DNA of 11,799 bases from a virus (lineage: Duplodnaviria > Heunggongvirae > Uroviricota > Caudoviricetes), in IMG/VR virus record IMGVR_UViG_2562617151_000001, positions 1 through 11,799 of that record, one strand, 5' to 3'. A program made the position numbers and the translations under genes. Below the pieces are notes generated by a model. It had not been told where the DNA came from, did no database searches, and was given only the letters and a program-made list of their open reading frames with translations. Below are positions 5,061-11,799 of this stretch, piece by piece. How positions within the stretch are numbered: the first letter of the stretch is position 1; each line of letters opens with the position of its first letter.

Positions 5061-5423
5061 TTAACGACCTGCTGCGCGGAGTTTTCCGTCAGGTTCACCG
5101 GCAAGAGTCAGTAACTGTCCCTGGTCTTCCTGCAGAATAGTCAGGCGACCACCGCGATTGACATACATCGGCGTTTCGGTGGTGTCTTCTTCGGAAATTT
5201 TCCCGCGGTTAGTCGGGCGAACATATGAGAGTTTGTGTTTGATTTTCACACGGTTCTCATCAAATGGTTCGATTTCCAGGTTGAGTGAGACCTTACCTTT
5301 GGTTTTCGTGTTCATCACACCGGAAGCGACTTCACTGAGAACTGCGCCGATTTTGGTTTCAAATACGCCGCCGTCCAGCTCCCCGATAAATGCATGCACA
5401 TCAGTACTGCGTTCGCTAGCCAT
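5061..5423 (-). CDS. YfdP-like prophage protein, 120 aa; the track ORF is N-terminally over-extended
   Basis: Start placed at MASERSTDVHAFIGELDGGVFETKIGAVLSEV (ATG 5423-5421) because GAGGAG lies about 8 nt upstream. The 106 codons upstream in the track ORF are R/C/P-rich low-complexity translation of GC-rich non-coding DNA. Confidence 0.65.
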   Translation of the reverse strand: MASERSTDVHAFIGELDGGVFETKIGAVLSEVASGVMNTKTKGKVSLNLEIEPFDENRVKIKHKLSYVRPTNRGKISEEDTTETPMYVNRGGRLTILQEDQGQLLTLAGEPDGKLRAAGR

Positions 5424-5439
5424 TTTGCTGCTCCTCATC

Positions 5440-5760
5440 ATATCGACCCTGCAAGGCCGATTAGTTTCTCCACAAAACAGAGAAGAACACCTGCGGTGGC
5501 AGCCGCCCGGATGGATTGGGTTATGAGCCCGTCGTCCGGTGATGCTCTTCTCTGTTTTGTAAAAAGGACGGTACCAGCCGGAAGCAAGGGTACAAACTGG
5601 TACCGCCGGGACTACACACAGCATAAAGTTGTGGTGCCGGGTGCCTCCCGGTGCCTGGCGAAGGTTGCACACCAGACGGGTGGGTATCCACAGAAGGTCG
5701 ACTGTCAGCCTCAACCTTAACCCGCGTGCGCTGAGCCGCATTCACCACAACGCTAAGAAT
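5440..5760. other. GC-rich structured non-coding block; candidate structured RNA or relic of a foreign element
   Basis: No credible ORF in any frame (all translations are R/P/C-rich). Contains a perfect 15-bp inverted repeat (5472-5486 with 5546-5560), a 9-bp stem (5569-5577 with 5597-5605) and long-range 9-nt complementarity (5628-5636 with 5743-5751). Visibly more GC-rich than the flanking phage DNA. Confidence 0.3.
5472..5560. repeat. perfect 15-bp inverted repeat ACAAAACAGAGAAGA / TCTTCTCTGTTTTGT separated by a 59-nt GC-rich spacer
   Basis: Read directly: arm 5472-5486 is the exact reverse complement of 5546-5560; 2 further complementary bases lie inside after one mismatch. Confidence 0.85.
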
Positions 5761-6590: not shown

Positions 6591-6669
6591 CTAACGAATC
6601 ACCCTAGACTTTATATGCCCCAGGCGGCTACTTCGTGGGCGTCCTGCCTGTTCGTTATCTTTGATATAA

Positions 6670-6740
6670 AATCTAACTTAACTTAGTTATTATGGCAAGA
6701 GAAAACACCAAACTTTTCTTAGTTCGGTGCCTTAGTTAGA
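6670..6740 (-). promoter_or_regulatory. putative O_L / P_L region (leftward early promoter with repressor operators)
   Basis: Heptamer CTTAGTT occurs at 6682, 6718 and 6731, the same motif as in the cI-cro intergenic region. Minus-strand candidate promoter: -35 TTGCCA (complement of 6693-6698), 17-nt spacer containing AACTTAGTT, -10 TAGATT (complement of 6670-6675). Confidence 0.4.
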
Positions 6741-6751
6741 GAAGAGAGGTC

Positions 6752-7378
6752 TTAGAGTTCGTATTGAACTCCTTTGACTACACCAATGATAAGGCAATTA
6801 CCATTGATAGGGATGTTGGGATACCGAGGATTTAATGGCACTAAAAACTTTTGAGGGCCATCGATGACTAATTTTTTTACTGTAGCTTCGTTTGTTCCAT
6901 CAAGTCGAGCGATGACTATTTTTCCATGACGAGGTTCTGCATCTGGATCTACAATCACTGTTGCGCCTTCTGGTATTGTTGGGAGGCCATTAGGGTTAGT
7001 CATGGAGTCACCTTTAACCTCTAATGCAAATGAGTTATCACCAATCTTTAATGATGTATCTACCCACTTGTCCACTTCACTAAACACTTCTGCTGCCCTG
7101 CACTCAGTAAACTGCCCAGCCTGAACCCACGATATTACAGGAACTCTGCGCATGTTTGTGACGAGTTTGCCTTCAAACTCAGCACCATAAAGAATGTAAT
7201 CTATTGACGTATTGAAGAACTTCGCTAATTTCGAAAGTGCCTCCCCACCAGGGGTATTGATGTCTTTCTCCCAGTACCCCACAGCAACGTCGCTTACTCC
7301 ACAAAATTTACCCAATTCTTTCTGGGACGTTCCGGTAACTCTTCTCAGAGCTTTTATACGCTGACCAACCGTTTCCAT
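6752..7378 (-). CDS. cI: prophage repressor, CI / P22 C2-like (N-terminal HTH plus C-terminal S24 LexA-like autopeptidase domain), 208 aa
   Basis: ORF METVGQRIKALRRVTGTSQKELGKFCGVSDVAVGYWEKD... (HTH) ... ISWVQAGQF...LEVKGDSMTNP...ATVIVDPDAEPRHGKIVIARLDG.EATVKKL...GNCLIIGVV. Ser-Lys dyad context and overall architecture match the lambda CI / P22 C2 class. Divergent from cro. Confidence 0.92.
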   Translation of the reverse strand: METVGQRIKALRRVTGTSQKELGKFCGVSDVAVGYWEKDINTPGGEALSKLAKFFNTSIDYILYGAEFEGKLVTNMRRVPVISWVQAGQFTECRAAEVFSEVDKWVDTSLKIGDNSFALEVKGDSMTNPNGLPTIPEGATVIVDPDAEPRHGKIVIARLDGTNEATVKKLVIDGPQKFLVPLNPRYPNIPINGNCLIIGVVKGVQYEL

Positions 7379-7396
7379 AGGAGCACCATTTCTTGA

Positions 7397-7468
7397 ATTG
7401 CTAAGTAATCTTAGTTTTTATTGACCAAAGATAGATTTGTAATTAGCATCTAATAAAACTTAGTTTGG
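7397..7468 (+). promoter_or_regulatory. putative O_R / P_R region between cI and cro
   Basis: Near-palindrome CTAAGTAATCTTAG at 7401-7414; CTTAGTT at 7410 and 7459; 9-mer AACTTAGTT at 7457-7465 is identical to 6680-6688. Candidate P_R: -35 TTGACC 7421-7426, 17-nt spacer, -10 TAGCAT 7444-7449, then SD GGAGG 7467-7471 and cro ATG 7476. Confidence 0.45.
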
Positions 7469-7475
7469 AGGGCGT

Positions 7476-7676
7476 ATGACAACTGACGATATCGAAAGCT
7501 ACTTCGGCAGTATTGAGAAAGTTGCTGCTTTTTTCGGCATAACAACTGAAGCCGTTTATCAGTGGCGAAACCGTCCGGGCCAGTTAATTCCAAAAGGACG
7601 TGCAGCAGAAGCTGCATATAGAACTTGCGGACGGTTGCCATTTAAACCTGAGCTTTATGAAAAATCTAATGGATAA
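7476..7676 (+). CDS. cro: Cro-like transcriptional regulator (Cro / YdaS-type HTH), 66 aa
   Basis: [69 protein letters not shown]; a small HTH protein divergently transcribed from the repressor, with an SD in front. Confidence 0.85.
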   Translation: MTTDDIESYFGSIEKVAAFFGITTEAVYQWRNRPGQLIPKGRAAEAAYRTCGRLPFKPELYEKSNG

Positions 7677-8265
7677 ATCGATTAACAGAAACCACAGAAC
7701 GATGAGGCTAACCGTGGGTAAGCATCACTGGAAAGTAGAAAAACAGCCTGAGTGGTACGTGAAAGCTGTCAGAAAAACTATCGCAGCGTTGCCGGGTGGT
7801 TACGCTGAAGCAGCTGACTGGCTGGATGTAACAGAGAACGCATTATTTAACCGCCTTCGTGCCGATGGCGATCAGATTTTCCCGCTGGGATGGGCAATGA
7901 TTTTGCAACGTGCTGGTGGAACTCACTTCATTGCTGACGCTGTGGCGCAGTCTGCAAATGGCGTCTTTGTGTCTCTTCCTGATGTCGAGGATGTGGACAA
8001 CGCCGATATCAACCAACGCCTGCTGGAGGTCATTGAACAGATCGGCAGTTATTCAAAACAGATTCGTTCAGCAATTGAAGACGGTGTAGTGGAACCGCAT
8101 GAGAAGACAGCAATTAACGACGAGCTGTACCTCTCAATTTCGAAGCTGCAGGAGCATGCAGCACTGGTCTACAAAATTTTTTGCATTTCAGAAAGTAATG
8201 ACGCCCGCGAGTGTGCAGCTCCGGGCGCCGTGGCGTGTCGTGACTGTGGAGAAACTAACGCATGA
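7657..8265 (+). CDS. CII-like phage regulatory protein (YdaT / CP76-type); start uncertain
   Basis: ORF ...[73 protein letters not shown]...; lies directly after cro as in lambdoid layouts. Candidate starts are ATG 7657 and ATG 7669 (the latter 5 nt upstream of the cro stop); the track's 7600 start is a GTG only 1 nt after an SD-like AAAGGA and is unlikely. Confidence 0.65.
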
Positions 8266-8440: not shown

Positions 8441-8620
8441 TTGCGACAAGTTAACCGCTGGTTCAAAGATCACTACGGAGTACCCGTCAGAGTCATTCGT
8501 TGGGAGCCGGAAACACAACGGGTTATCTACCTCCGCGAAGGCTATGAGCATGAATGCTTCAGTCCGCTCGAACAGTTTCGTCGTAAATTCAGGGAAATAG
8601 AGGTCGGTCATGAGCACTAA
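8441..8620 (+). CDS. possible small protein (59 aa) with TTG start; alternative to the ATG-initiated 112-aa ORF 8262..8600
   Basis: AAGGAG sits 8 nt upstream of TTG 8441. The frame gives [59 protein letters not shown], a protein-like composition, ending at TAA 8618-8620 (overlapping the initiator start by 11 nt). It is absent from the ATG/GTG-based track. Confidence 0.35.
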
Positions 8621-9581
8621 ATTAACCGGCTATGTATGGGATGGTTGCGCTGCGTCAGGCATGAAATTATCCAGCGTGGCAATTATGGCCCGCCTGGCTG
8701 ATTTCAGTAATGACGAAGGTGTGTGCTGGCCATCAATTGAAACCATTGCCCGTCAGATTGGCGCGGGGATGAGTACCGTCAGAACGGCTATCGCACGGCT
8801 GGAAGCAGAAGGCTGGTTAACGCGTAAGGCGCGTCGCCAGGGTAACCGCAATGCGTCGAATGTTTATCAGCTTAACGTTGCGAAGCTTCAGGCAGCGGCA
8901 TTTTCTCAATTGTCAGATTCTGACCCGTCAAAATCTGACGCATCAAAATCTGACCCGTCAAAATCTGACGCATCAAAATCTGACCCGTCAAAATTTGATG
9001 CGTCGAAATCTGGCAAAAAAGCGGGTTTTCACCCGTCAGAATCTGGCGGGGATCCGTCAGTAAAATCAAAACATGATCCGTCAGATAAAAAAACTTCTCG
9101 TCCGGACGCTTCGCAACCGGACACGCAGACGGCTGAACAGGAGTTTTTAACTCGCCATCCTGATGCGGTTGTATTCAGCCCTAAAAAGCGCCAGTGGGGA
9201 ACGCAGGATGATTTGACCTGCGCACAGTGGCTCTGGAAAAAAATCATCGCCCTGTACGAGCAGGCCGCCGAATGTGACGGCGAGGTGGTTCGTCCCAAAG
9301 AACCGAACTGGACAGCCTGGGCAAACGAAATTCGCCTGATGTGTGTGCAGGATGGTCGTACTCACAAACAAATCTGCGAGATGTACAGCCGCGTCAGCCG
9401 CGATCCGTTCTGGTGCCGTAACGTGCTCAGCCCGTCGAAGCTGCGGGAAAAATGGGATGAGCTTTCCCTGCGCTTATCGCCGTCCGTCAGCACGTACACA
9501 GAAAAACGCGAAGACCCGTACTTCAAAGCCAGTTACGACAACGTGGACTACAGCCAGATCCCGGCAGGATTCAGGGGGTGA
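8610..9581 (+). CDS. phage replication initiation protein (lambda O-like role; N-terminal HTH, internal iteron-encoded linker), 323 aa
   Basis: N-terminus [70 protein letters not shown] is a typical helix-turn-helix replication-protein domain. The internal SDPSKSDASKSDPSKSDASK stretch is encoded by a 15-bp iteron array, the lambdoid ori-within-initiator arrangement. SD AGAGG precedes ATG 8610. Confidence 0.85.
   Translation: MSTKLTGYVWDGCAASGMKLSSVAIMARLADFSNDEGVCWPSIETIARQIGAGMSTVRTAIARLEAEGWLTRKARRQGNRNASNVYQLNVAKLQAAAFSQLSDSDPSKSDASKSDPSKSDASKSDPSKFDASKSGKKAGFHPSESGGDPSVKSKHDPSDKKTSRPDASQPDTQTAEQEFLTRHPDAVVFSPKKRQWGTQDDLTCAQWLWKKIIALYEQAAECDGEVVRPKEPNWTAWANEIRLMCVQDGRTHKQICEMYSRVSRDPFWCRNVLSPSKLREKWDELSLRLSPSVSTYTEKREDPYFKASYDNVDYSQIPAGFRG
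8919..9008. repeat. iteron array: six tandem 15-bp units alternating TCTGACCCGTCAAAA / TCTGACGCATCAAAA; probable prophage origin of replication
   Basis: Units at 8919, 8934, 8949, 8964, 8979 and 8994 (the last degenerate), with degenerate copies flanking (8911-8918, 9009-9023) and GATCCGTCAG repeated at 9051 and 9075, followed by an A-rich stretch at 9084-9095. Located inside the initiator CDS. Confidence 0.85.
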
Positions 9582-9583
9582 TC

Positions 9584-10072
9584 ATGAGTCTTTTGAATGA
9601 AGTTCAGAAATACATTGAAGCCCATCCGGGGTGTACTTCCGGAGACATTGCGGATGCTTTTGCAGGTTACTCACGGCAGCGCGTTCTGCAGTCAGCAAGC
9701 AAGTTACGTCAGAGTGGGCGTGTGGCTCACCGTTGTGAAGGGGATACACGCAGACATTTCCCGCGCCTGACTGAGAGAGCGCAGGAGGCGGAACCGCAAC
9801 CAGTTCGTGAAACCAGACCTGTGCGCAATTTCTATGTCGGCACTAACGACCCGCGGGAGATTTTGTGCCTGACCCGCCAGGCTGAAGAACTGGAGTCCAG
9901 GGGCTTATACCGTCGTGCTGCAACGGTGTGGATGGCGGCATTCCGTGAAAGCCACTCCCAGCCAGAACGAAACAATTTTCTGGCGCGTCGTGAGCAGTGT
10001 TTACGGAAAAGCAGCAAGCGCGCTGTATCGAGTGATGAGTGGTATCTGTCAGGGAATTACGTGGGGGCGTAA
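9584..10072 (+). CDS. PerC-family (Pch-like) regulator domain protein with an N-terminal winged-helix-like region, 162 aa
   Basis: C-terminal LTRQAEELESRGLYRRAATVWMAAFRESHSQPERNNFLARREQCLRK matches the PerC/Pch signature (LE..GLWRRAA..W ... RR..C). ATG 9584 is preceded by GGGGG; the GTG 9578 in the track is less likely. The stop overlaps the next start as TAATG. Confidence 0.6.
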   Translation: MSLLNEVQKYIEAHPGCTSGDIADAFAGYSRQRVLQSASKLRQSGRVAHRCEGDTRRHFPRLTERAQEAEPQPVRETRPVRNFYVGTNDPREILCLTRQAEELESRGLYRRAATVWMAAFRESHSQPERNNFLARREQCLRKSSKRAVSSDEWYLSGNYVGA

Positions 10073-10398
10073 TGACGACGTTAACTCAATGCCAGCAGCA
10101 GGTGCTGGATATGCTGATTTCTTATCAGAAAGAGCGTGGCTTTCCGCCAACCAATCAGGAGGTGGCAACCATGCTGGGATACCGTTCAGTGAATGCAGCG
10201 GTAGAGCATCTTCGCGCACTGGAGAAAAAAGGCGTCATCACGATAAAGCGTGGCGTGGCCCGGGGGATAACGCTTCATACCGCGGTGAAGGACGACGACA
10301 GCGAGGCGGTCGGGATTATCCGCGCACTGCTTGCCGGTGAGGAAAACGCAAGGTTGCGTGCAACCCACTGGTTACATGAGAGGGGCCTGAAAGTATGA
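10072..10398 (+). CDS. LexA N-terminal DNA-binding-domain protein without the S24 peptidase domain, 108 aa
   Basis: MTTLTQCQQQVLDMLISYQKERGFPPTNQEVATMLGYRSVNAAVEHLRALEKKGVITIKRGVARGITL aligns by eye with the LexA DNA-binding domain (LexA: ...[55 protein letters not shown]...). No Ser/Lys peptidase domain follows. Confidence 0.7.
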   Translation: MTTLTQCQQQVLDMLISYQKERGFPPTNQEVATMLGYRSVNAAVEHLRALEKKGVITIKRGVARGITLHTAVKDDDSEAVGIIRALLAGEENARLRATHWLHERGLKV

Positions 10399-10784
10399 AG
10401 CTGATCCTGCCTTTTCCGCCCAGCGTGAACACGTACTGGCGACACCCCAACAAAGGGGCGTTTGCAGGTAAGAGCCTGATAAGCGCGGCGGGGCGCAAAT
10501 TCCAGAGCGCGGCGTGTGCAGCAATAGTTGAGCAGTTACGTCGTCTGCCAAAACCAACGTCGGCACCTGCTTCAGTGGAGATCGTGTTGTTTCCTCCGGA
10601 TAACCGGATCCGCGATCTGGACAACTATAACAAGGCGCTGTTTGACGCCCTGACCCACGCGGGTGTGTGGGAAGACGACAGCCAGGTGAAAAGAATGCTG
10701 GTGGAGTGGGGACCGGTTATCCCGGAAGGGAAGGTCGAGATCACTATCAGTAAGTACGAGAAAACGGCGGGTGCAGCCGCCTGA
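10395..10784 (+). CDS. rusA: Holliday-junction resolvase RusA (crossover junction endodeoxyribonuclease), 129 aa
   Basis: MKLILPFPPSVNTYWRH...DNRIRDLDNYNKALFDALTHAGVWEDDSQV... follows the RusA pattern (PP..N.YYRH ... RRDLDN..K...DALT.AG.W.DD.QV). ATGA overlap with the upstream stop; typical nin-region gene. Confidence 0.88.
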   Translation: MKLILPFPPSVNTYWRHPNKGAFAGKSLISAAGRKFQSAACAAIVEQLRRLPKPTSAPASVEIVLFPPDNRIRDLDNYNKALFDALTHAGVWEDDSQVKRMLVEWGPVIPEGKVEITISKYEKTAGAAA

Positions 10785-10803
10785 TCAAGAGGAGAAACGA
10801 AGT

Positions 10804-11247
10804 ATGAATAATCTGATGGTCATTGATGGTATTGAAGTTCGTCGTGATGCTTATGGGCGTTACAGCCTGAACGATCTGCATCGCGCAGCAGTAGCATCTG
10901 GTGCAAATGCCAGAACCAAGGAGCCGGGAAAGTTTCTTTCCAGCCAACAAACTGTTGAGCTTGTTCATGAATTGACCAACACCCAGAATTTGGGTGTTGA
11001 CCCGGTGAGTGTGATTCATGGGGGAAATGAACGGGGAACTTATGTCTGCAAGGAACTGGTGTATGCCTATGCAATGTGGATCAGCCCGTCATTCCATCTG
11101 AAGGTGATCCGTACTTTCGACATGGTAACCAGCGCACCGGAAAAATTATCCGGACAGGCTGCTGACAAGATGCAGGCTGGTGTGATTCTGCTGGACTTTA
11201 TGCGTCGGGAGTTACCCGAACCGCGACAAGCCCTATATCCGGAGTAA
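10804..11247 (+). CDS. KilA-N domain protein, 147 aa
   Basis: Start at MNNLMVIDGIEVRRDAYGRYSLNDLHRAA (ATG 10804, SD AAGAGGAG 9 nt upstream); the GTG 10771 in the track is unlikely. ...GTYVCKELVYAYAMWISPSFHLKVIRTF fits the conserved KilA-N C-terminal block. Confidence 0.7.
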   Translation: MNNLMVIDGIEVRRDAYGRYSLNDLHRAAVASGANARTKEPGKFLSSQQTVELVHELTNTQNLGVDPVSVIHGGNERGTYVCKELVYAYAMWISPSFHLKVIRTFDMVTSAPEKLSGQAADKMQAGVILLDFMRRELPEPRQALYPE

Positions 11248-11250
11248 TCC

Positions 11251-11799
11251 ATGCATCGTATAGACACGAAAACCGCGCAGAAGGATAAGTTCGGCGCGGG
11301 TAAGAACGGTTTTACCCGTGGTAACCCCCAGACAGGCACGCCTGCCACCGATCTGGATGATGACTACTTTGACATGTTGCAGGAGGAGCTTTGCAGCGTG
11401 GTGGAGGCATCCGGTGCCAGCCTAGAGAAGGGGCGGCACGACCAGTTGCTTACCGCGCTTCGTGCGCTGCTGTTAAGCCGCAAGAATCCGTTTGGCGATA
11501 TCAAATCGGACGGCACGGTGAAAACGGCTCTCGAAAACCTTGGTTTGGGAGAAGCGGCGAAAAGGGATGTGGGCACAGGAGATAATCAGATACCGGATAT
11601 GGGAGCATTCGCTTCTGGTTCGGGATGGTTCAGGCTACCAGGTGGATATATTGTTCAGTTTGGCACTTTTTCAGGAAACACGACCCGCTTTATCAGTGGA
11701 CACTTCCCTATACCATTCCCTAATCAGCCGATGGTTTCAGTCAGTGTTATGTCTGATGCCGTTCAGTCAGACCCGTCGAATCCTCGCCCCGCAGGTTTT
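11251..11799 (+). CDS. tail-fibre-like protein, N-terminal 183 codons; 3' end beyond the window
   Basis: ATG 11251 with GGAG 7 nt upstream; open to the window end (absent from the track because there is no stop). Translation [74 protein letters not shown]...[21 protein letters not shown] resembles phage tail-fibre proteins by recollection; the family assignment is tentative. Confidence 0.5.

Follow-up and report, generated by a model that had tools for sequence, protein, structure and literature searches.

A two-joint scar between a truncated kilA-N gene and the side tail-fibre gene of a defective SfV/e14-type prophage at thrW of Escherichia coli

Analysis of a stretch of 11,799 nt of viral DNA (the window) revealed a junction at which the first half of a kilA-N gene is connected, through a 25-nt relic of a DNA-circulation gene, to the very end of the baseplate gene ymfQ and to the complete start of a tail-fibre gene, stf. 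Direct sequence evidence, partly from the window and partly from the scaffold from which it was taken, is available for the junction and its relic as well as for the invertase, the att repeats and the inverted repeats. The junction is very probably the product of a deletion with two joints in a defective thrW prophage of SfV/e14/SKA5-type ancestry, with a loss of about 22.5 kb. The window would then correspond to the left two-thirds of a defective prophage of about 14-16 kb in thrW of E. coli. An earlier note on this DNA had described rusA, kilA-N, a gap of 3 nt and then a tail-fibre-like ORF, and this order is confirmed by the sequence, by Pfam and PHROGs matches and by the identity to phage SKA5. 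The internal deletion that it proposed for a cryptic prophage is also upheld, with a different position of the scar, which lies inside kilA-N at 11214 and consists of two joints and a relic.

The window begins inside the chromosomal proA gene (1-1254) and continues into the tRNA-Thr(CGT) gene thrW, the integration target, at 1369-1444 on the + strand; ARAGORN places this gene at 566-641 of the source-scaffold locus L003, whose coordinates are converted to those of the window by adding 803. The attL copy of a 56-nt att repeat, composed of the 3' part of thrW and a few bases beyond, spans 1399-1454, and is followed at the left end of the prophage by an intact tyrosine integrase gene of 387 aa (1459-2622, - strand; Pfam Phage_integrase, E 1.6e-48). 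At the other end, attR is a 56-nt copy of the thrW 3' end at L003 14792-14847, identical to attL at 55 of 56 positions, so that att repeats mark both ends of the element, which is inserted at a tRNA gene and has an adjoining integrase gene. Chromosomal genes of the yagP-T type lie beyond attR. The early region is arranged in lambdoid style and starts with yfdT/yfdR/yfdQ/yfdP-type genes. Between the gene for an S24-peptidase repressor (6752-7378, - strand) and the replication-protein gene (8610-9581), which contains an iteron-like tandem repeat, there are cro and a CII/CP76-like gene. Intact ORFs encode the integrase, the repressor, Cro, the CII-like protein and the replication protein. The genes for PerC/YfdN and for a protein with a LexA DNA-binding domain come next, and then the intact rusA Holliday-junction resolvase gene at 10395-10784 on the + strand (Pfam RusA, E 6e-15), colinear with SfV orf43 and with the SKA5 resolvase gene.

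Comparison with known phages assigns the prophage to the SfV/e14-like group, with a predicted Mu-like contractile tail in its ancestor, and not to the P22-like phages. Between 1399 and 5822, the window is 98.4% identical to the attP-int-xis-orf28-32 region of SfV; identity to SKA5 is 97% in rusA-kilA-N and also in stf, and identity to e14 is 96% in ymfL-ymfM and stf. SfV, a serotype-converting phage of Shigella flexneri, integrates at thrW like the prophage studied here, and both SfV and SKA5 carry a PerC / LexA-like / RusA / KilA-N block that is colinear with the window as well as the same ymfQ(gp48)-stf junction. SKA5, a phage of E. coli, also has the same stf allele (97%) and a P segment with an invertase, whereas SfV has gtrABV in place of the P segment and invertase. 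Unlike the element in the window, these are complete phages of 37-38 kb with a dam methylase gene, and they encode HK97-type heads together with a sheath, a tube, a tape measure and a Mu gp43-48-like baseplate. The P22-like phages proposed earlier as comparators were rejected, as the closest intact relatives, SfV and SKA5, have Mu-like contractile tails; the sole P22 link is the P22_Cro-family fold of cro.

The left side of the junction falls within an ORF of 147 aa at 10804-11247 on the + strand, which ends with the TAA stop codon at 11245-11247. Its translation is a chimera made of residues 1-137 of KilA-N, the heptapeptide PEPRQAL encoded by the relic out of its original frame, and YPE followed by the stop, which come from the end of ymfQ. 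The KilA-N domain itself is intact (residues 7-109; Pfam KilA-N, E 6e-23, 81 bits), and the PHROG matches to the ORF end at residue 137. Compared to the intact kilA-N homologue of 269 aa (L002 13305-14114), the chimeric protein is deprived of the 132 native C-terminal residues. In a megablast search with window positions 9500-11799 against 5,426 complete E. coli genomes, complemented by base-by-base alignments, the matches listed end at 11214 (query position 1715), 33 nt before the stop codon of the ORF and at codon 137 of kilA-N, which delimits the part derived from kilA-N, with homology to thousands of E. coli prophages, to 10804-11214 (+ strand). The thrW prophage of strain DP051 is 99.9% identical to the window up to this position and continues through a kilA-N gene of 810 nt (269 aa) into DUF968, Q, holin, endolysin, spanin, HNH and terminase genes. 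The same succession of DUF968, Q, lysis, HNH and terminase genes 3' of an intact kilA-N is found in DP051, SKA5 and SfV, and in all three the late genes lie between kilA-N and the fibre gene, over about 22 kb in the intact relatives. The absence of Q, lysis, terminase, portal and capsid genes between kilA-N and the fibre gene, which had been the starting point for the proposed deletion, is thus real.

On the right side, among the E. coli and phage matches listed for the query 11205-11799, those reaching its 5' end start at 11235. The segment 11235-11250 (+ strand) contains the last 13 nt of ymfQ, TAA included, and a native spacer of 3 nt, and shows no difference from the ymfQ-stf junction in either SKA5 or GF31; the ribosome-binding site of stf, GGAG, is located within it at 11241-11244 (+ strand). 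ymfQ is a Mu gp48-like baseplate gene, and its arrangement with stf is the same in SKA5, GF31 and e14. Judged from the sequence, the 3-nt gap (TCC) is the normal spacing of ymfQ and stf and not the scar, because the window from 11235 onwards corresponds to the native junction. The right breakpoint stops about 4 nt short of the ribosome-binding site of stf.

The 20-nt filler between the two sides (11215-11234) could not be matched to either of the first two E. coli loci examined. Its interpretation as a variant end of ymfQ was rejected, since the fibre-side matches listed that reach the 5' end start only at 11235 and since its source is found instead in the DNA-circulation gene of SKA5 and SfV. 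With a few flanking bases, the filler forms a relic of 25 nt (11213-11237, + strand) from the 5' part of this Mu-N-like tail/DNA-circulation gene, which matches SKA5 at 27448-27472 (- strand) and SfV orf15 at 11772-11796 (+ strand), in each case at 24 of 25 positions. In both phages the source of the relic has the correct orientation and a map place between kilA-N and ymfQ, and a match of this type was obtained in none of 400 shuffles (200 of each of the two genomes). The relic overlaps the kilA-N side by 2 nt (TA) and the ymfQ side by 3 nt (ATA); being flanked by these microhomologies, it indicates that two breakpoints have been joined. The breakpoints cut through genes, with kilA-N interrupted at codon 137 of 269, 25 nt left of the DNA-circulation gene and 13 nt left of ymfQ.

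In the proposed model, the ancestor would have been a temperate phage of the SfV/e14/SKA5 type with a lambdoid early region, an HK97-like head and a Mu-like contractile tail, from which about 22.5 kb would have been deleted, in two joints, by illegitimate recombination at microhomologies of 2-3 nt. In the first joint, kilA-N would be fused at its codon 137 to the Mu-N-like DNA-circulation gene, at about nt 103-118 of the latter, with the loss of the C-terminal half of kilA-N, of the DUF968, Q, lysis, HNH and terminase genes, and of the portal, head, sheath, tube and tape-measure genes. The second joint would lead from the DNA-circulation gene, at about nt 127-142, to a point 13-16 nt ahead of the ymfQ stop codon, with the loss of the baseplate genes. 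Measured on SfV and SKA5, the first joint accounts for the loss of about 17.4-17.8 kb and the second for that of about 4.9 kb, which together give the total of about 22.5 kb. The right side has been left with the host-range module, which comprises the constant part of stf, the Pin crossover site, a P segment of 1.8 kb in which variable fibre ends and assembly genes are present as two opposed sets, and pin.

An assembly artefact, in which the junction would merely reflect a chimeric contig, could be envisaged from the gapped state of the draft scaffold used as source and from the end of the window at a gap. The join is located within unbroken sequence, 550 nt ahead of the first gap, and an exact-sequence look-up retrieved the identical chimeric ORF of 147 aa from three data sets, namely an NCBI assembly (JH660540.1 of GCA_000158415.2, 663 kb), a Logan contig (SRR14626412) and an ENA metagenome scaffold (ERZ28657740). 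The 20-nt filler is present in all three. Because the same ORF and filler recur in three data sets, two of which are further independent assemblies, the join is not an assembly artefact, the probability of such an error being practically negligible.

The exact junction was found in 0 of the 5,426 complete E. coli genomes among the megablast matches listed. The single match with high coverage was GF31, whose joint differs in that a truncated kilA-N is connected to a truncated baseplate J gene. A ymfQ-stf query, on the other hand, matches 1,799 complete genomes, 1,377 of which cover at least 80% of it and have kept ymfQ and the start of stf. Using two synthetic queries that represent the single-joint intermediates, no such intermediate was detected in the 5,426 complete E. 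coli genomes; the queries returned other, independent joints between a truncated DNA_circ_N gene and stf.

The two joints are probably the result of sequential deletions. We consider it rather unlikely that one complex rearrangement made both of them, for example by template switching with two jumps in which the 25-nt piece was copied in passing. Such a single event would fit the lack of a single-joint intermediate in the 5,426 genomes and the microhomology of just 2-3 nt at each joint, which is typical of template switching and of illegitimate end joining. The rarity of the exact lineage, however, makes absent intermediates expected, deletions from DNA_circ_N' to ymfQ/stf are also found alone, and relatives decay in a stepwise manner. 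Thus, the prophage of CFIAFB20180540 displays three separate deletions, one of them a DNA_circ_N'/stfP joint, and decay in several steps is also seen in WL297, GF31, DP051, e14, CPS-53 and Sp1.

Downstream of the two joints, the stf gene starts with an ATG at 11251 and its frame remains open to the last base of the window (11251-11799, + strand), which provides codons 1-183 of about 215 expected for a gp53-like tail-fibre gene of the StfP type. The encoded protein matches the PHROGs family 'tail fiber protein' over residues 1-103 (E 8e-72) and the Pfam tail-fibre C-terminal domain Gp53-like_C (E 1.6e-6, 29 bits for a cut-off of 24.9). The latter match covers profile positions 1-42 of 84, the window ending there, while the SKA5 orthologue covers the full profile. 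Protein identity is 97% to the annotated side tail fibre of SKA5, an isolated phage, and 70% to both K-12 StfP and SfV orf21. On these comparisons the ORF at the window end is identified as an StfP orthologue. The end of the window corresponds to a scaffold gap of 100 N in L003, in which the last 32 or so codons of stf are located, and the other two contigs with the chimeric ORF likewise stop before the end of stf.

The constant N-terminal part of the fibre (residues 1-104) is near-invariant among StfP, SKA5 Stf, SfV orf21 and YfdL, and the alignments diverge just past a stretch of 11 residues, whose N-terminal part is encoded by the crossover site. According to the protein alignment, the variable, receptor-binding part of stf extends from 11555 to 11799 on the + strand, inside the predicted invertible segment. 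Among the matches listed, those to Klebsiella and Salmonella phages (98.9-99.2%) begin at 11535, at the repeat. The variable domain is of the SKA5 type and not of the K-12 StfP type. Synonymous and nonsynonymous codon differences in stf number 11 and 7 relative to SKA5, and 12 and 9 relative to GF31; these differences are too few to demonstrate selection, and there is no clear sign of purifying selection in either comparison.

The end of stf sits in a Pin-invertible segment, as predicted from its repeats and from the adjoining invertase gene. The left inverted repeat, or crossover site, of the segment is TTGGTTTGGGAGAAG at 11540-11554 (+ strand), the single match in the window, for 0.01 expected by chance. 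It is located within a palindrome-like site of 26 bp (11528-11553) that encodes part of the sequence ...ALENLGLGE..., and its inverted partner lies next to pin (L003 11684-11698). K-12 e14, GF31 and SKA5 also have this pair of repeats, about 1.8 kb apart, and the repeat agrees with the published e14 P-segment repeat at 15 of 16 bases (PMC12529663). One of the contigs, from Logan, ends exactly at the crossover repeat, a hint that the segment may invert. The size of the segment is about 1,805 nt, composed of 732 real bases and of about 364 and 709 nt that are missing at two scaffold gaps and were estimated by colinearity with SKA5, for 1,803 nt in relatives.

Outside the window, pin encodes a serine invertase of 184 aa (L003 11765-12319) with significant matches to Resolvase (E 9e-52), HTH_7 (E 5e-13) and the PHROG 'DNA invertase' (E 6e-97). 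Past the window, the order in the scaffold is one or more tfa fragments, an inverted fibre end with a Collar domain, pin, a neighbour gene interrupted by IS5, and attR. Downstream of the window, the source scaffold is interrupted by five gaps of 100 N, and the right arm was rebuilt from its fragments and from colinearity with relatives; colinearity with the P segment, together with IS5, explains the content of the gaps. The tfa sequences, as fragments, the pin/gin-type invertase and the attR that the earlier note had suggested seeking downstream are therefore all in the source scaffold. Neither of the findings that it had named as contrary to its proposal was obtained, as the ORF is a tail-fibre gene and no late genes between stf and attR were detected in L003, in the gene list or in the sequence.

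Host-range segments of the Din family are represented by the G segment of Mu with Gin, the C segment of P1 with Cin and the P segment of e14 with Pin. The module described here resembles them in the constant fibre N-terminus outside the segment, in the crossover site within the fibre gene, in the opposed variable ends and assembly genes inside the segment and in the adjoining gene for a serine invertase. It differs from them in that it resides in a prophage without a tail to which the fibre could attach. A role similar to that of tailocins, also suggested for the retained fibre gene, was rejected, as the sheath, tube, baseplate and lysis genes are absent between attL and attR; the association of the fibre with an invertase is verified by pin in L003.

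The element has retained int, the repressor gene, cro, the replication genes and pin, as well as a KilA-N reduced to its domain and an stf frame that is open to the scaffold gap, and it has no genes for lysis, packaging or virion assembly. With this gene content, it would no longer be able to make particles or to lyse the cell. A very remote alternative would see in the element a mosaic that is still functional, as a satellite or as a phage of odd gene order, and that provides a helper phage with the tail fibre that it encodes. The intact ORFs for the integrase, repressor, Cro, CII-like and replication proteins and the iteron-like repeat within the replication gene are compatible with such a function. 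Both breakpoints, however, are inside genes and have left a nonsense relic, the HNH/terminase region, where the packaging signals are situated in relatives, is lost, IS5 is inserted in the neighbour gene, and no circularisation, replication or packaging was seen for the analogous Sp1 (PMC2669165).

In a decayed prophage produced by the two-joint deletion, stf might depend for its transcription solely on a weak internal promoter or on read-through out of the early-right operon, which the repressor controls, because Q and the late promoter have been lost and the gene has kept its own ribosome-binding site. In a consensus scan, no terminator-like site was found on the + strand from the PR-like promoter (7421-7449) to stf, and the only further promoter-like site, at 11117-11146, was weak. 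All terminator-like sites are on the - strand, and the number of promoter-like sites is not above that in shuffled sequences (3 compared to 3.2).

Scars of this type are well precedented, while the exact junction is a rare allele. Sp1 (CP-933H) of O157:H7 Sakai is also integrated at thrW and displays a similar overall scar, with early genes (int, cI, cro, cII, O', P') that abut a tail-fibre gene without a gap. Its right arm contains tfaE, an inverted tfa and fibre end, pinE and the same neighbour gene of 774 nt, and the pin region is 96% identical to that of the source scaffold. Sp1 has been described as severely degraded, without morphogenesis, packaging or lysis functions and without excision or replication, and neither its circularisation nor its packaging was observed (PMC2669165). 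It differs from the prophage studied here in its lambda-type O/P early region and in its breakpoint, from P' to the fibre gene; the two share only the int end and the right arm, and the integrase is a pseudogene in Sp1 and intact here.

The e14 prophage of K-12, located at icd, belongs to the same phage family and has a ymfQ-stfP-tfaP / tfaE-stfE-pinE module, with crossover repeats that are the same as here, a P segment of 1.8 kb and an stf constant region that is about 96% identical. Its late genes have also been reduced to fragments (the ymfN chimera, beeE, jayE). However, its att site and breakpoints are others, the variable domain of StfP is different, and e14 has retained ymfQ in full as well as parts of the terminase, portal and baseplate J genes. 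In CPS-53 of K-12 (KpLE1, at argW), which has the early genes yfdN-yfdT in common with the window, a truncated yfdM methylase gene abuts the truncated fibre gene yfdL, followed by tfa genes. In contrast to the present case, this deletion took the start of the fibre gene, and CPS-53 has no invertase, carries gtr O-antigen genes and uses another integrase and att site. Further independent joints are the kilA-N'/baseplate J' joint of GF31 and the terminase'/tfa' joint of DP051, with another in WL297.

The recurrence of the fibre module in such remnants raises the question of a host function. It is improbable, in our view, that the stf / P segment / pin module is under selection as a host function while the junction itself is neutral debris, a reading that adds to the deletion model and does not replace it. 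Two candidate functions are a Pin-switched chimeric Stf that would block adsorption of T-even-type phages, by analogy with StfE2 of e14, and a recombination reservoir for receptor-binding cassettes. Upon inversion of its P segment, e14 is reported to produce StfE2, a protein that prevents adsorption of T2 and confers resistance to it (PMC12529663). The retention of the module in the independently deleted e14, CPS-53, Sakai Sp1, DP051, GF31 and CFIAFB20180540, the right breakpoint that spares the ribosome-binding site of stf by about 4 nt, and the open frames of stf (up to the window end) and pin would be consistent with a host function. Yet modules adjoining attR outlast internal deletions through their position alone, and the codon differences in stf (11:7 and 12:9) give no clear sign of purifying selection. 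Moreover, the T2 result obtained with e14 is not directly transferable, because the variable domain is of the SKA5 type and not of the K-12 StfP type. Still more doubtful is the idea that the deletion itself was not neutral and, through the loss of Q and all late genes with the stf ribosome-binding site left in place, put an intact Pin-switchable fibre module directly behind an SOS-inducible early-right operon. If true, the module would be a domesticated, invertase-controlled surface function or an adsorption-blocking defence, as reported for e14 StfE2 and PinQ, and its recurrent survival in independently decayed prophages would reflect selection.

Taken together, the decay of this prophage by a two-joint deletion is an ordinary example of a well-known process. 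For annotation, the 'KilA-N protein' of 147 aa becomes the product of a chimeric pseudogene, the 'tail fibre' an StfP orthologue, and the element a dead prophage of the SfV/e14 type. The 25-nt relic is a marker of decay through several breakpoints and could mark the lineage of this rare allele. With this prophage, the independent cases in which stf, the P segment and pin have together outlasted the other phage genes increase by one, which is of relevance to the recent claim that modules of this kind serve in defence against phages.

The two flanks of the repressor/cro block (window ~6656-7690) are 97-99% identical to the intact phage SfV and to the related, separately deleted prophages of E. 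coli strains DP051 and GF31, while the block itself is without a nucleotide match in any of the three. An unmatched segment set between such closely related flanks points to a swapped immunity cassette.

Comparison with relatives also reveals differences in early-gene content. At the boundary between yfdN and the LexA-like gene (window ~10069-10075), a dam-type N6-adenine methylase gene is missing, whereas SfV, the intact phage SKA5 and O157 strains carry it at this position; DP051 and GF31 lack it, as the window does. This absence is a natural presence/absence variant, separate from the late-gene deletion scar. The ORF in the yfdP region (window 5061-5741) exceeds the 120-aa YfdP of K-12 and DP051, with a length of 186 aa as called on the source scaffold piece (L003), or 226 aa if the first ATG is taken as the start. 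The gene directly upstream of yfdP carries a frameshift annotation in both DP051 and GF31.

The replication-protein gene (window 8610-9581) contains 6.3 copies of a tandem 15-nt unit, TCTGACCCGTCAAAA, at 8919-9012, whose peptide product is a series of SKSDP/SKSDA repeats. The array looks like iterons, and the replication origin may thus lie within the replication-protein gene, as in lambda O.

At the right end of the window, the variable end of the tail-fibre gene stf (11535-11799) matches Klebsiella phages (Kp4845-2 and relatives) and Salmonella phage MET_P1_103_31 at 98.9-99.2% identity, whereas E. coli phage SKA5 is less similar. As this match begins at the crossover repeat, it points to a receptor-binding cassette exchanged across genera. 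A 100-N scaffold gap lies directly at the window end (11799, L003 10998), and the Logan contig carrying the same junction (L004) terminates precisely on the crossover repeat (1469-1483). These assembly breaks within the Pin-invertible P segment reflect either repeats common to another prophage or a culture holding both orientations. Adjacent to the invertase gene pin, at L003 12377-14530, IS5 pieces split a gene related to one that is GIY-YIG-like and 774 nt long in DP051 and in the Sakai Sp1 prophage. The inverted fibre end occurs a second time between gaps (L003 13472-13827), and this copy may be mis-scaffolded.

A related prophage in E. coli CFIAFB20180540, located at tRNA-Pro/yejM, has undergone three distinct internal deletions, with the joints methylase/Q', HNH'/tape measure' and DNA_circ_N'/stfP, and its invertase is truncated. 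Taken together, these lesions make it a clear case of stepwise decay among SfV/e14-type prophages.
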